Shown here: piece after piece, positions 25,542-30,027 of the stretch
How the letters are laid out: the number at the start of each line of letters is the position of its first letter
Position numbering within the stretch: position 1 is the first letter of the stretch
NCBI GenBank assembly: GCA_016188705.1
Contig: JACPHH010000016.1
Coordinates: 21,690 to 85,689, forward strand
Direction: 5' to 3'
Length of the DNA stretch: 64,000 bases
Source: Candidatus Peregrinibacteria bacterium
GTDB lineage: Bacteria; Patescibacteriota; Gracilibacteria; UBA1369; JACRIC01
Notes under the pieces: generated by a model
Seen by the model: the letters and a program-made list of their open reading frames with translations, nothing else
Told to the model about the DNA's origin: nothing
The model's database searches: none
Program-made: the position numbers and the translations under genes

Positions 25542-26537
25542 ATGTCGGCTGAAAAAATATATGATGTCATTATTGTCGGAGGAGGCGTGGCAGGACTTGG
25601 CGCCGCGGTTTATACGCGAAGATTCGGCCTCAAAACTCTCATACTTGCCGAACTTCCCGGAGGAACGATCACCCAAACGCATCTCGTTGAAAATTATCCG
25701 GGTTTCGTACGTCTTTCAGGTCAAGAACTCGCGGATCATTTTATTGAACACGCCAAAAGCGTCGGAACGGAAATAAAAGCAGAAAAAGTAAAAGAAATAA
25801 CGCGTGAGAAAGATAGTCTCTTCTTGGTAAAAACCGCGGAGGAACAATTTTTCTCTCGAACGATTCTTTTCGCGACGGGAACGCATCACAAACGACTGGA
25901 AATTCCAAGCGTCATTGCTTTTGAAAATAAAGGGGTTTCATACTGCGCCACTTGTGACGGACCTTTATTTAAAGGAAAAACTCTCGCGGTGGTCGGCGCA
26001 GGCGATTCAGCCACGAAAGAAGCTCTTCTGCTCACGGAATTCGGCACGAAAGTATATATTATTGTGCGGGGTGACGACATTCATCCGGAACCAATAAATA
26101 AAGTTCGGGCGGATCAAAATCCAAAAATTGAAATTATTCGACGGGCAAAGGTTATTGAAGCTCGCGGATCAAAATTTTTAGAAGAAATCATCCTCGATAC
26201 AGGTCAAACACTCGCGGTACAAGGTCTTTTTATAGAAATCGGCCGAATTCCGCAAACCGAACTCGTAAAAAATCTCGAAGTCGAACTCAACGAACTAAAA
26301 GAAATTAAAATAGATCGAAAATCTCGAACGAATATTGAAGGATTTTTCGCCGCCGGCGACGTGACGGATACCGAATGGAAACAAGCAATCACCGGAGTCG
26401 GCGAGGGAGCGCAAGCCGCCAACAGCATCTACGAATATTTAATGCGAAAAAATACATTTCGGGGGGAAGGATTCGAACCCTCACTCCATGGTTCAGAGCC
26501 ATGTATCCTACCTTTAGATGACCCCCGATCAATATAA
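25542..26537 (+). CDS. trxB: thioredoxin-disulfide reductase
   Basis: GGGVAGLGAAVY FAD site, CATCDG redox centre, VVGAGDSA NADPH site and FAAGDV. The last ~27 codons read through the antisense tRNA-Gln gene. Confidence 0.9.
   Translation: MSAEKIYDVIIVGGGVAGLGAAVYTRRFGLKTLILAELPGGTITQTHLVENYPGFVRLSGQELADHFIEHAKSVGTEIKAEKVKEITREKDSLFLVKTAEEQFFSRTILFATGTHHKRLEIPSVIAFENKGVSYCATCDGPLFKGKTLAVVGAGDSATKEALLLTEFGTKVYIIVRGDDIHPEPINKVRADQNPKIEIIRRAKVIEARGSKFLEEIILDTGQTLAVQGLFIEIGRIPQTELVKNLEVELNELKEIKIDRKSRTNIEGFFAAGDVTDTEWKQAITGVGEGAQAANSIYEYLMRKNTFRGEGFEPSLHGSEPCILPLDDPRSI
26458..26528 (-). tRNA. tRNA-Gln (anticodon CUG)
   Basis: Hand-folded cloverleaf. Acceptor TCGGGGG/CCCCCGA, D stem ATCT/GGAT, anticodon stem CATGG/CCATG with loop CTCTGAA, T arm GAGGG-TTCGAAT-CCTTC. 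No encoded CCA. Confidence 0.85.
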
Positions 26538-26574
26538 TCTAATATTTTTGTCAATGACTTAAAAAAACCCCTAT

Positions 26575-27165
26575 TTAAGCCTCCTTTTCAATAATTTTTT
26601 CAATTTCTTCGACCATTTCTTGTATCTTTCCTTCAAAACTATGCACAATATAATCACAATTCCCCGCGTCTTGCATCTCTTTTTTATAACTTTCCTCACG
26701 TCGTTTCAGTTCTTCATCGCTTTCATGATGACGCCGTTGAATGCGTTTCCTTAAAACTTCCCACGAAGGAGTGGTAAGAAAAACCGTAACAATGTGTCCA
26801 GATGGAATAATTTTTTTTAATGAATGCATTCCCTGAACATCCACTTCACGAACAAGTATTTTTCCATGAGCCAACGCGTCTTCAATCGGTTGTTTCAATG
26901 TGCCATAAAAATGTTCATTGTGAACTTTGGCCCATTCAAGAAAATCTCCTCGTTTCATGCGCCGTTCAAATGCTTCTCTTGAAATAAAATGATACACTTC
27001 TCCATCTTGCTCCATCGGACGCGGAGCACGAGTGGTGCATGAAACAGGAAACACATAATCATGATGCCGTTTTTTTAAATACTGAATAACGACGCCTTTC
27101 CCCGAACCCGATGGCCCAAGAATGAGAATAAGTTTTCCTGGATAAATTGACTTAATATTTAAAAT
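26575..27165 (-). CDS. gmk: guanylate kinase (start codon uncertain, probably non-canonical)
   Basis: The track ORF starts at a GTG that would remove the P-loop. Own upstream translation gives ...IKSIYPGKLILILGPSGSGKGVVIQYLKKRHHDYVFPVSCTTRAPR. The reading frame opens at 27174 and holds only ATT (27165, 27156) as possible initiators. Confidence 0.8.
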   Translation of the reverse strand: MLNIKSIYPGKLILILGPSGSGKGVVIQYLKKRHHDYVFPVSCTTRAPRPMEQDGEVYHFISREAFERRMKRGDFLEWAKVHNEHFYGTLKQPIEDALAHGKILVREVDVQGMHSLKKIIPSGHIVTVFLTTPSWEVLRKRIQRRHHESDEELKRREESYKKEMQDAGNCDYIVHSFEGKIQEMVEEIEKIIEKEA

Positions 27166-27213
27166 ATTGTATAATTAAATAATTTCCTTTCAAAAAAATG
27201 GCACCGCAAAAAA

Positions 27214-27222
27214 ATTATAACA
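27214..27222 (-). promoter_or_regulatory. extended -10 element (TGTTATAAT) upstream of gmk
   Basis: The minus strand reads TGTTATAAT about 50 nt upstream of the gmk reading-frame opening. Confidence 0.4.
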
Positions 27223-27255
27223 GAAAAAAGGATAATTGAAATGACATATAAACTC

Positions 27256-27264
27256 TGTTATAAT
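27256..27264 (+). promoter_or_regulatory. extended -10 element (TGTTATAAT) pointing into the gene-free region
   Basis: TGTTATAAT on the plus strand, divergent from the gmk promoter. No ORF of 60 aa or more follows on either strand. Confidence 0.35.
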
Positions 27265-27269
27265 GGTGA

Positions 27270-27800
27270 GATTCGAAACGGAAGGAAAAAAAAGTTCTTT
27301 GAAAACAAAAAATCCCTACCAAAAAAGTAGGGAGCGAAAAAGGGGTTTAAAAAAAACCTCTAAAAAGCTCCTTGTTCCCTCCCTACTTTTCGAATCAGGC
27401 TTAAGGCCCTAAACTACCCTAAGCCTCCTTCCCAAGGTAGCCTCCCATCAATAAATCGATCGGGATGGCGAAAAAAAACAAAAATAAATGGAAAAAAAAT
27501 TCCTTTATTGGAAATCAAAAAACAAAAACACATAGACCGATGGTGATAAACGGTTCAATAAATTCACCAAAGAACGGTAGGGATGTAATTGACAGGAGAT
27601 TTTAGGGCCAAACCTGTCATGTACCGCTCTTTTTGACCCTGTTTTGACCTCTGTGAAAATAACATACACAGATTAGGACAATTCATTCAAAAGAGCAATA
27701 TGCAGGGCGTTTACTCCACCTCTGAGCATTATCCTTTTACGGATCTCTCATTGTGCAAATCGAGTAAACGCTCTGATTAAATTTCAAAAATCTCGCTTTA
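27270..27800 (+). ncRNA. candidate structured non-coding RNA(s), class not recognised
   Basis: Gene-free stretch with nested helices. GATTCGAAA(27270)/TTTTCGAATC(27387). GTAGGGAG (27327) can pair with either CCCTAC (27314) or CTCCCTAC (27379). CGGTA-GACAGG...CCTGTC-TACCG (27575-27626). GCGTTTACTC/GAGTAAACGC (27707/27762). No tmRNA, RNase P, SRP or 6S signature was seen. Confidence 0.25.
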
Positions 27801-27804
27801 ATAA

Positions 27805-27861
27805 TCTGTTTTTCAGGATGTCCCTAGGCAGTGTTCACATAAAATTTTCAGAGGCTTCTTA
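27805..27861 (-). repeat. composite repeat after the ssb stop: motif A, motif B, motif A
   Basis: The minus strand reads TAAGAAGCCTCTGAAAATTTTATGTGAACACTGCCTAGGGACATCCTGAAAAACAG, starting at the ssb stop codon (27859-27861). Confidence 0.65.
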
Positions 27862-28404
27862 AAAAGGCAAATCATCAATCGCGACATCTTCTTCAATGGG
27901 ACCGGATTTTTTTTCCGAATCAAAAGTAAAATCATCCGCGCCCGCTGTTTTGTCATTCATGGATTCCGAAGGCAGAGGATGAAGACCACCTTGTGAACGC
28001 TCTTCCATGGAAGAAACTTTCGCCATGGCAGGAGCATAAGAACCACTCACGTCTTCACCCATGGAAACTCCTTTGCGATCTAGCATAATAATATTGTCCG
28101 CGATAATTTCAGTTCGATAGCGTTTTACCCCGTCTTCACCCTGCCAATCATGCGTCTGAAGTCGGCCTTCGACATAAACCTTACTCCCCTTTCTCATGTA
28201 CTGACCGCAAATTTCCGCGAGCCTTCTCCACGCAACGATATTATGAAATTCGACCTTTGTCTGTTTCTGGCCTGCCTGATCGGTCCAGACAAAATTCGTG
28301 GCAACTCCAAAAGAAGCCACGCTTTGACCGCTCGGAGTTTGCTTGACTTCGGGATCACGCGTAAGATTTCCGATAATCTGCGCGCGATTTAATGACATTG
28401 CCAT
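27859..28404 (-). CDS. ssb: single-stranded DNA-binding protein
   Basis: OB-fold N-terminus (LNRAQIIGNLTRDPEVKQTPSGQSVASFGVATN...FHNIVAWRRLAE), a disordered linker and the acidic tip DDLPF. Confidence 0.93.
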   Translation of the reverse strand: MAMSLNRAQIIGNLTRDPEVKQTPSGQSVASFGVATNFVWTDQAGQKQTKVEFHNIVAWRRLAEICGQYMRKGSKVYVEGRLQTHDWQGEDGVKRYRTEIIADNIIMLDRKGVSMGEDVSGSYAPAMAKVSSMEERSQGGLHPLPSESMNDKTAGADDFTFDSEKKSGPIEEDVAIDDLPF

Positions 28405-28565
28405 AAAAATAAAATAAAAAAATAAATTTCAAATATCCCTCAAGTATCCAAAGTTTAACACATTTTTTAGAAAGAAAAAATTTTTCCTACATATAAAAAT
28501 TTTAAAAAAACGCTATTTAAAAAACAAAAACGCAGTTAAAAAAATATTTTTCTTCAAGGTTCCCA

Positions 28566-28574
28566 TGCTATAAT
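28566..28574 (+). promoter_or_regulatory. extended -10 (TGCTATAAT), first of two tandem copies upstream of the methyltransferase gene
   Basis: CATGCTATAAT occurs at 28564-28574 and again at 28631-28641. Confidence 0.35.
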
Positions 28575-28632
28575 GAGCCACGAATACCTGGATTAATATC
28601 AGGAATAACTTGAATGGGCGGGCGATGTAACA

Positions 28633-28641
28633 TGCTATAAT
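28633..28641 (+). promoter_or_regulatory. extended -10 (TGCTATAAT), second copy
   Basis: The same 11-mer, CATGCTATAAT, lies about 90 nt upstream of the ATG at 28732. Confidence 0.4.
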
Positions 28642-28731
28642 AGGCTTTTACAGAAAAAACAAACAATACAAAGACTATGAAAATCAAAATACTTACTATA
28701 ATATAATTGAGCCTTTTTATATTCATACACA

Positions 28732-30027
28732 ATGAAAAACGAACCATACATATACATTCTCGGCCGAAAACCTCTTCTTTCTTTGGCCGAACTGCTGACA
28801 CAATTTCCTGATAAAGACATTCTCTCGATTCGACCGAAAACTTTTGTGTCGAAAACAAAAATTAATGATCCACAAGCCTTTCTTAACACTCTCGGAGGAA
28901 CCATTCGCGTTGCGAAAATATTTCATAAAGCGCAGAAAAAAAATGTAAAAAGTTTGGAAGCTGAAATTCCGAAATGGATTCCATTTTTAAAAAAATACTT
29001 TAAAGATCGGTTTAAATCGTGCGACGGAAAAATTCGTTTTGCCATGAATATTTACAACATACCGCATCCTCGTGAAATTTTTCTAAAAAAATTATTAAAT
29101 GAAGTAAAACGAAATTTAAAAGAAACAGGACTTAAGGTGCGTTTCGTAAATAACAATTTTAAAAATGTAGAAAGTGTCGTGACGTTAAAAGAAAAACTTA
29201 TTTCAAAAAAAGGCTGCGAGATAAATGTGATTGTAGGTGATAAATTTTTTCTCTTTGCGGAAACTGTCGCGGTTCAGAACGTGGACAAATACTCGGAACG
29301 CGACTATGGAAAACCCGCGAGAGACCCGAGAAGCGGCATGTTGCCGCCAAAACTCGCGCAAATCATGATCAATCTGGCAAAAACGAACGCGAAAGGTCAA
29401 AAAAATAAAATTGAATATGTGTACGATCCATTTGGCGGAACCGGAACGATTTTGATGGAATCGGCGCTTCAAGGCTTGCATGCGATCGGTTCAGACATTG
29501 ATAAACAGGCCGTGCAATATTCGAAAAAAAACATCGAATGGCTAAAAAAAGTGCATAAAATTGGAAGCAAACAAAAAATAAAAATAGCGACACTCGACGC
29601 GACCAAATTGACCGCCAAACAATTGAAAGAAAATATGTCAGTGAAACGGCTGGAAAAATTTGCCATTGTAACCGAGCCTTTTCTTGGACCTCCATTTTTC
29701 AGATTTCCACTTATGGAAAAACTTGAGGAGCACATGCGATTTCTTGACTATCTTTATACAAAATTTTTCGAACAAATGAAGGAAATTCTGCCAAAGGGCA
29801 CGATTATTATTTTTGTCATACCGGCTTTCCGTGATAAAACTCATGACATACGCATGGGAAAAACAGTTGAAAAAATTTGCAGCCTTGGCTATAGTGTCAT
29901 CGATCTGATTCCCGATCATGTCGCCAAAAAATACGAAATCGGAAAACCTGAAACGCCTTCCCTCCTCTACGACCGCAAAGATCAAATTGTCGCCCGAGAA
30001 ATCTATAAATTCGTAAAAAACACGTAG
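28732..30027 (+). CDS. class I SAM-dependent RNA (guanine-N2-type, Trm11/UPF0020-like) methyltransferase
   Basis: PARDPRSGMLPPKLAQIMINLA followed by VYDPFGGTGTILMES (motif I), IGSDID and the PFLGPP motif IV region. An N-terminal ~190 aa putative RNA-binding domain precedes these. Confidence 0.7.
   Translation: MKNEPYIYILGRKPLLSLAELLTQFPDKDILSIRPKTFVSKTKINDPQAFLNTLGGTIRVAKIFHKAQKKNVKSLEAEIPKWIPFLKKYFKDRFKSCDGKIRFAMNIYNIPHPREIFLKKLLNEVKRNLKETGLKVRFVNNNFKNVESVVTLKEKLISKKGCEINVIVGDKFFLFAETVAVQNVDKYSERDYGKPARDPRSGMLPPKLAQIMINLAKTNAKGQKNKIEYVYDPFGGTGTILMESALQGLHAIGSDIDKQAVQYSKKNIEWLKKVHKIGSKQKIKIATLDATKLTAKQLKENMSVKRLEKFAIVTEPFLGPPFFRFPLMEKLEEHMRFLDYLYTKFFEQMKEILPKGTIIIFVIPAFRDKTHDIRMGKTVEKICSLGYSVIDLIPDHVAKKYEIGKPETPSLLYDRKDQIVAREIYKFVKNT

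Follow-up and report, generated by a model that had tools for sequence, protein, structure and literature searches.

The stretch of DNA analyzed here (the window) comprises 64,000 nt from a Candidatus Peregrinibacteria bacterium (assembly GCA_016188705.1, contig JACPHH010000016.1, positions 21,690–85,689). Within it, the guanylate kinase gene gmk (26575..27165, minus strand) is separated from ssb (27859..28404, minus strand) by a spacer whose longest fully contained open reading frame (ORF) has 54 aa, in agreement with an earlier sequence-only reading, which had found no ORF reaching 60 aa in 27170–27858 and had proposed a large or cis-regulatory RNA in this region. Our analysis suggests that positions 27271 to ~27785 of the plus strand constitute an independent gene for a structured non-coding RNA (ncRNA) of ~515 nt with its own strong sigma-70 promoter, and that its product is a stable housekeeping RNA with a role in trans; judging from the sequence, we would give this interpretation a probability of about two in three. 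The RNA is conserved among relatives, all of them uncultivated, can be aligned and has no match in Rfam; it appears to represent a new class of large RNAs in bacteria that is restricted to the Peregrinibacteria lineage. Its 5' end (~27271) is placed by the position of the promoter, and its 3' end (~27785) by the point where conservation stops and by the U-rich tail that follows helix P10. The plus strand of 27271–27785 folds with a predicted minimum free energy of -149.6 kcal/mol (z = -7.7 versus dinucleotide shuffles), which is a stronger signal than that of the minus strand of the region (z = -5.1).

The putative promoter (27236..27264, plus strand) consists of a -35 hexamer TTGAAA (27236–41), a 17-nt spacer and an extended -10 element TGTTATAAT (27256–64), and the combination TTGAAA-17-TATAAT with the TG extension scored 11 out of 12 in a simple promoter scan. 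In the relatives the -35 and extended -10 elements occupy the same alignment columns, and the strict pattern TTGAAA-N17-TGnTATAAT was found on the sense strand of 37 out of 51 loci and on the antisense strand of none (background: 1.3% of random 330-nt windows in this genome), i.e. the RNA has a sigma-70 promoter of its own that is conserved in position, as expected of an independent ncRNA gene. The sequence-only reading had correctly located both this element and its minus-strand twin, which appears as ATTATAACA on the plus strand at 27214–27222 and serves gmk as its own TGTTATAAT -10 (27222–27214); only 14 bp separate the -35 of the RNA (27236–41) from this -10. Altogether, four sequence-based observations agree on the plus strand: the promoter, the terminators, the wobble census and the folding z-score. 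As regards the terminators, three loci (L037, L057 and L052) exhibit a classic plus-strand stem with a U-tract in place of the 3' domain, and most others have UUAYYUUU directly after the last helix. In the census, the covarying helices of the 3' domain contain G·U or U·G in 57 cells versus A·C or C·A in 14, with A·C at the level of the other mismatches, and at one pair of helix P6, 22 sequences have U-A and 8 have U·G, where the minus-strand equivalent of U·G would be a C·A mismatch. The proposal of a large RNA read from the plus strand is therefore backed by the conservation of the promoter, by the wobble census and by the covariation of the helices.

The alignment of the spacer among relatives revealed both conserved sequence and strong covariation. 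In a DNA search of 40 relatives, many families of the order retained the segment 27471–27583 at 68–79% identity, and two family-level relatives align across nearly the whole gmk–ssb spacer. In the alignment of the central domain (A3, 54 distinct sequences) 92.9% of the cells are paired, counting both stems of a pseudoknot, compared with 33–49% in slid controls; in the alignment of the 3' domain (A4, 28 sequences) the standard pairs amount to 89.3%, compared with 37–52% for slid partners, and the compensatory cells number 156 versus 46 ± 8 in shuffles, with none of the 500 shuffles reaching the observed values. A long-range helix between CUCCCUAC (27379–86, segment 3) and GUAGGGAG (27577–84, segment 4) ties the 5' domain to the invariant 18-nt block and is paired in 452 of 459 cells, a level reached in 0 of 2000 shuffles. 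At position 4 of this helix, 46 genomes have C-G and 4 have U-A; at position 5 the counts are 37 for C-G, 11 for U·G and 3 for U-A. Since the genomes changed at position 4 have merely AAAAGUAG as the local 5' partner, the covariation is specific to the long-range pair.

The covariance model of the central domain built in this work (R1) detected the RNA in 38 of the 65 sampled genomes of the same order and in several sister orders of the class, in each genome as precisely one copy, and the families with a copy include f1, f2, f3, f9, f15, f19 and f43; among ~375 genomes from other classes of the phylum it gave a single weak match. In the genome under study the RNA core likewise occurs once. A pattern scan of public genomes matched 35 contigs, of which 32 are assigned to Candidatus Peregrinibacteria, Peribacteria, 'Gracilibacteria' or to unclassified or Patescibacteria-group metagenome-assembled genomes (MAGs); the remaining three comprise one contig labeled Nitrospirota with the same gmk context and two chance matches, in Rhizobium and Bacteroidales. 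In a Nitrospirota-labeled MAG the 2.2-kb contig JAUVQE010000075.1 (L042) carries the RNA (107 bits with R1) together with a divergent gmk of the kind typical of Peregrinibacteria, and it is probably mis-binned. No copy was found on viral contigs, and no phage association was seen; because the RNA is absent from viral contigs and single-copy, it is neither mobile nor phage-borne.

The spacer does not exhibit the features of a small protein gene, i.e. a conserved frame, variation at synonymous sites or a family match. The reading frame across the conserved core varies from genome to genome, the 18-nt core shows no variation at any codon position, and the four spacer ORFs of 39–54 aa that were compared with Pfam have no match there; hence, the region is considered non-coding. 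One of the rejected candidates was a 46-aa ORF (27465–27605) with a superficial similarity to ribosomal protein L34 (KTH...KNGR..RR), whose frame is not conserved and which has no match in Pfam. Thus, a short protein gene, which would have spoken against an RNA, is not what lies here.

In this genome the 5' part contains an extra element GAUUCGAAA (27270–78) that is predicted to pair with UUUCGAAUC (27388–96); the arms of a closing helix reported in the sequence-only reading, GATTCGAAA (27270–27278) and TTTTCGAATC (27387–27396), are indeed located there. It is followed by a block conserved in the alignment, GUUCUUUGAAAAC (27294..27306), from which UUGAAAA can pair with UUUUCGA (27387–93). Segment 1 (UCCCUAC, 27313–19) and segment 2 (AAAAGUAGGGAG, 27323–34) form a small hairpin (27313..27334), which competes with the pairing of segment 2 to segment 3, the latter being part of the near-invariant block CUCCCUACUUUUCGAA (27379..27396), able to pair with segment 2 locally or with segment 4 at long range. 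Many genomes, including this one, possess the extra upstream UCCCUAC and AAAAGUAGGGAG, which can pair with each other or with segments 3 and 4, and lineage-matched pairs of segments 1 and 2 (e.g. UACUCCU/AGGAGUA) recur among the relatives. The sequence-only reading had described a switch-like, mutually exclusive choice of GTAGGGAG (27327–27334) between CCCTAC (27314–27319) and CTCCCTAC (27379–27386). All three segments are placed correctly and the alternative pairing is real and recurs in relatives; what that reading had missed is that conservation gives the best support to a different partner of CTCCCTAC, namely a second GTAGGGAG 190 nt downstream (27577–84). The competing CUCCCUAC/GUAGGGAG segments may make the 5' domain a functional switch or serve as a folding aid. 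Next along the RNA are hairpin P2 (27397..27426, AGGCUUA/UAAGCCU), which varies among the relatives (GGCAG/CUGCC, GGUGG/CCACC, GGUUG/CAACC, GACAG/CUGUC and GGACG/CGUCC), the conserved block AAGGUAGCCUCC (27434..27445, consensus AAG-NNN-YCUCC in the alignment) and, directly after it, the variable hairpin P3 (27445–27468).

Farther along lie two conserved A-rich tracts, in both of which the Cs are conserved at fixed spacing: tract 1 (27471–89, consensus AAACAAAAACAAAC..AACAAAAA) and tract 2 (27514–34, consensus AAAAACAAAAAYA), with a small variable hairpin P4 (27490–27513) between them. They are followed by an H-type pseudoknot (27535..27569) composed of stem 1 (GACCG 27535–39/CGGUU 27551–55), with compensatory changes at all 4 pairs, and stem 2 (UGGUGA 27541–46/UCACCA 27564–69), which is 97% paired and exists in such variants as GGGAU/AUCCC, GGAGU/ACUCC and UUGGAAC/GUUCCAA. 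The most conserved block of the entire RNA, CCAAAGAACGGUAGGGAU (27567..27584, consensus ...GGGAG), is identical in most of more than 50 genomes, and its 3' half is segment 4 (27577–84), engaged in the long-range helix. The same region contributes to helix P6 (27572..27629; GA·CGGU 27572–78/ACCG·UC 27623–29, with an invariant A·C), which encloses hairpin P8 (GACAGG 27591–96/CCUGUC 27613–18), the latter defined by inspection; the MAFFT alignment of the variable hairpins P7 and P8 was too noisy for pair counts and their description is based on inspection only. One P6/P8 pair (133/276) is GC in 44 sequences and AU in 4. P6 and P8 correspond to the second domain of the sequence-only reading (CGGTA/TACCG, 27575–79/27622–26, and GACAGG/CCTGTC, 27591–96/27613–18), which has thus been confirmed, including compensatory changes. 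Next comes helix P6' (27626..27696; GCUCUUUUUGA 27626–36/UCAAAAGAGC 27687–96), 83% paired and with compensatory changes at 4 pairs (e.g. GCUCG/CGAGC in L047 and L085), which encloses hairpin P9 (UCUGUG 27650–55/CACAGA 27667–72). P6' and P9 are counted with P10 and P11 as the 3' domain of the fold.

The remainder of the 3' domain (27705..27773) is built on helix P10 (GGGCGUUUACUC 27705–16/GAGUAAACGCUC 27762–73), in which compensatory changes were found at 12 of 13 pairs and 93% of the cells are paired. P10 is the third helix of the sequence-only reading, GCGTTTACTC (27707–16)/GAGTAAACGC (27762–71) with 45 nt enclosed, and it covaries; accordingly, three of the pairings noticed there (P6/P8, P10 and GTAGGGAG/CTCCCTAC) turned out to be conserved with compensatory changes across more than 50 genomes. 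P10 surrounds the invariant CACCUCUG (27717–24), helix P11 (UGAG 27723–26/CUCA 27747–50; inner AUCC/GGAU, 27731–44; 90% paired) and CAUUGUG (27749–55). Many of the invariant nucleotides of the RNA are located in junctions.

The right-hand end of the spacer is of a different nature. The segment 27779–27849 matches dispersed repeats, and 27824..27848 (plus strand, outside the RNA) is a solo 25-bp terminal inverted repeat, CTAGGCAGTGTTCACATAAAATTTT, of a miniature inverted-repeat transposable element (MITE) of ~272 bp; the flank 27779–27823 is also repeated at a few places. Thus, of the interval 27170–27858 originally proposed as the RNA region, the greater part does contain the RNA, and the last ~35–70 nt (27779–27849) belong to the repeat. 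The MITE with its 25-bp terminal inverted repeats YTAGGCAGTGTTCACATAAAATTTT has 68 termini in the 1.37-Mb genome, many of them arranged as inverted pairs that lie ~250 bp from each other and share their interiors (e.g. C20:12883–13155, C13:124996–125269 and C11:15900–16172), and occurs as full elements with two conserved interior ends, as 41-nt palindromes consisting of the termini only and as solo termini. Several copies adjoin a second recurrent motif, TTTTTCAGAGGTTCC.

The genomic neighborhood is strikingly constant on one side. In tblastn searches, ~55 of 60 loci, some of them from other orders, have gmk 400–500 nt upstream of the core and oppositely oriented; on the other side, a convergent ssb was found in 22 of 50 loci and different genes elsewhere. 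A tRNA comes after gmk, and we read the arrangement as an ancestral tRNA-gmk-RNA-ssb block with overlapping divergent promoters. No gene follows downstream on the strand of the RNA, the next gene being convergent or variable. In the region of the gmk start (27141–27177; loci L002 and L003), this genome (G000) and the genomes G001 and G002 have no ATG, GTG or TTG between the upstream stop codon and the P-loop, and an ATG is present there in other families; gmk of the G000/G001/G002 family is likely to start at ATT or ATA. Farther away, a trxB-like ORF (25542–26537, plus strand) extends across the antisense tRNA-Gln (26458–26528, minus strand) before its first stop. In two related genomes only (loci L008 and L028, from G030 and its relative), an ORF similar to reverse transcriptases (…FFDSVDQDILL…YGDDFIIV…) is convergent to the RNA and is probably a group II intron or a retron-type insertion unrelated to it.

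A comparison with the known RNA families, which the sequence-only reading had called for with large RNAs included, did not identify a relative. At the gathering thresholds Rfam 15 reported three tRNAs and nothing else in the window; cmscan of 27050–27950 at E ≤ 10 returned only spurious miRNA-hairpin matches to the hairpin at 27323–27390, and ten homologous loci showed no match at the position of the RNA at E ≤ 0.5. ARAGORN found only the tRNA-Gln in 26000–29000 and no tRNA-like domain in the RNA. The transfer-messenger RNA (tmRNA, RF00023) is ruled out by the lack of a match in the region and by the presence of a full tmRNA at C33:3354–3795 (133 bits); for the RNase P RNA (RF00010) there is likewise neither a match nor a P4-type core, and a genuine copy resides at C11:4603–5093 (163 bits). 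The 6S RNA (RF00013) gave no match at E ≤ 10 and differs in size and in its fold, which is branched here and a ~185-nt rod with a central bubble resembling an open promoter in 6S; a candidate at C13:74357–74525 (plus strand, 42.5 bits, below the Rfam gathering score of 46.4) is a probable 6S RNA. The RNA component of the signal recognition particle (SRP; RF00169/RF01854) was rejected as well, in view of the lack of any match in the region at E ≤ 10, of a helix-8 signature and of Ffh/FtsY. The early dismissal of these four families from the sequence itself therefore holds. OLE, ROOL, GOLLD, HEARO, raiA and all other Rfam 15 families showed no covariance-model match, and an Hfq sponge is ruled out by the lack of Hfq in the genome. 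The literature covered, from which subscription journals were outside, contains no paper that ties Peregrinibacteria, the Candidate Phyla Radiation (CPR) or gmk to such an RNA.

What could the function of this RNA be? Our best guess, drawn from its structure and conservation, is a trans-acting scaffold or a ribozyme-like housekeeping RNA, that is, most likely a ribonucleoprotein scaffold or a self-organized, possibly catalytic, RNA machine. In such a molecule the invariant junction blocks would provide the working or binding surfaces, the A-rich tracts would make tertiary contacts (A-minor or triplex), and the strict linkage to gmk would result from shared overlapping divergent promoters, and not from direct regulation. 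A bolder version, which we regard as less likely than not, is that the RNA forms the core of a hitherto undescribed housekeeping machine (a ribozyme or an essential ribonucleoprotein) confined to the Peregrinibacteria branch of the CPR and conserved at the rank of RNase P or tmRNA; CCAAAGAACGGUAGGGAG, CUCCCUACUUUUCGAU and CACCUCUG...CAUGUG might then form its active or binding center, and its origin might be linked to the unusual cell biology of the clade (no SRP, reduced genomes). Several points weigh against the assignment of an independent trans-acting RNA. Its transcription, strand and ends are deduced from sequence only; no canonical plus-strand terminator was found in this genome, and the invariant A·C within P6 on the plus strand would become G·U on the minus strand, which is the single contrary indication regarding the strand. 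No protein partner or target emerged from the analysis, and nowhere else in the genome was a complement of the invariant blocks found, in a search of an assembly devoid of rRNA genes. R1 finds nothing in family f6 and in one genus of f17, so that the RNA is either non-essential there or diverged beyond the model, i.e. it is widespread and not universal. Finally, the near-universal adjacency to gmk across orders exceeds what would be expected if a trans-acting RNA had nothing to do with this gene, and may point to a functional connection.

The last point leads to the main competing explanation, in which the RNA has no general role in trans and instead regulates the supply of guanine nucleotides locally, acting by promoter competition, by local supercoiling or by a nucleotide-sensing 5' fold with the competing segments 1/2/3/4. 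The divergent gmk contrasted with the variable opposite flank, the mere 14 bp between the -35 of the RNA and the -10 of gmk, and the recurrence of the alternative CUCCCUAC/GUAGGGAG pairings in relatives would all fit such a role, yet an ornate 500-nt fold with many invariant junction nucleotides exceeds the needs of promoter coupling, the two transcripts do not overlap, the order tRNA-gmk-RNA-ssb resembles plain ancestral synteny of streamlined genomes, and Rfam scans of the region and of the homologous loci found no ligand-pocket motif of a known riboswitch; we therefore consider this explanation unlikely. A cis-regulatory leader in the ordinary sense, which the sequence-only reading had left as an alternative, should be a 5' untranslated region that shares the strand of the gene it controls and has an expression platform beside the start; the RNA is antisense to gmk, and its own strand carries no gene after it, so this part of the early proposal finds no support. 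Its variant in the opposite orientation, a very long minus-strand 5' leader of gmk with a riboswitch-like attenuator and UCCCUACUUUUUUGGUAGGGAUUUUUUG (27333–27300) as the expression platform, appears very improbable: it could draw on the strict linkage to the gmk start, on a terminator-like minus-strand site in this genome, on the G·U that the invariant A·C of P6 would form and on the minus strand folding better than shuffles, but the conserved upstream promoter is missing from the minus strand at all 51 loci, the G·U to A·C ratio and the U-A/U·G pair of P6 (A-U/C·A on the minus strand) favor the plus strand, the terminator-like site is not conserved in relatives and the -10 of gmk lies downstream of it.

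Sequestration of a protein, in the manner of 6S, CsrB or CrcZ, is somewhat less probable than regulation of gmk. The (AAN)n tracts and the repeated GUAGGGAG/CUCC motifs could titrate an RNA-binding protein or the ribosomal anti-Shine-Dalgarno/Shine-Dalgarno partners, and both the tracts AACAAAAACAAA, conserved in sequence beyond mere composition, and the conserved GGGAG-like (Shine-Dalgarno-like) and CCUCC-like (anti-Shine-Dalgarno-like) blocks agree with this idea; on the other hand, the genome lacks Hfq, the A-tracts number only two, sponge RNAs usually consist of many repeated hairpins, unlike the one complex fold predicted here, and the GGGAG and CUCCC blocks are engaged in a covarying helix with one another and are therefore not free binding sites. 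The least probable option, to which we attach hardly any weight, is a highly divergent version of a universal RNA, notably of the SRP RNA, which was detected (RF00169, RF01854) neither in this genome nor in 121 genomes of the same order. An Ffh/FtsY-type GTPase was not found in this genome either (motif scan and tblastn), and the whole SRP pathway appears to be missing in the lineage; the absence of SRP subunits from many CPR bacteria has been published (PMC8080830), and, given this loss together with the missing Ffh/FtsY, no SRP RNA is expected. Moreover, the region contains no helix-8-like GNRA-capped motif, and the SRP-less sister lineages do not carry the RNA.

Few large (>400 nt), highly structured RNA classes are known from bacteria, namely rRNAs, RNase P, tmRNA, group I and II introns, OLE, GOLLD, ROOL, HEARO and raiA, and each of them has yielded new biochemistry. 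If the RNA from the gmk–ssb spacer is a new class, it offers an ornate target for structural biology, with a defined promoter, a pseudoknot, long-range helices and invariant junctions, as well as a marker of this uncultivated CPR lineage and a handle on its specific physiology. The family would also improve the annotation of many MAGs, in which a 700-bp gap is now blank, and the alignments A2–A4 together with the covariance model R1 suffice to seed an Rfam-style family.

One of the known systems closest to the proposed RNA is the OLE (ornate, large, extremophilic) RNA of Firmicutes: both have ~500–600 nt, are chromosomal, single-copy, highly conserved and lineage-restricted, exhibit many invariant nucleotides and several helices backed by covariation, and have a function that is not evident from the context. 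The two differ in that our RNA has no match to the Rfam OLE model, comes from the CPR, lacks an adjacent oapA-like partner gene and possesses long A-rich linkers and an H-type pseudoknot. With ROOL and GOLLD, described in PMC12286853 as large ornate bacterial RNAs of unknown function and complex tertiary architecture, it shares these general properties; they are often associated with prophages or tRNAs and multi-copy, whereas this RNA is single-copy, not viral and fixed beside gmk. The tmRNA and RNase P RNA are similar in size, in their pseudoknots and A-rich single strands, in occurring as one copy per genome and in having a strong promoter; both are encoded elsewhere in the genome, and the RNA described here has neither a tRNA-like domain nor a P4-type core. 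Independent transcription and conserved single-stranded A-rich motifs are shared with the RNAs of the 6S and CrcZ type, but these form either a rod interrupted by a bubble or a series of hairpins, while the RNA beside gmk is predicted to adopt a complex multi-domain fold.

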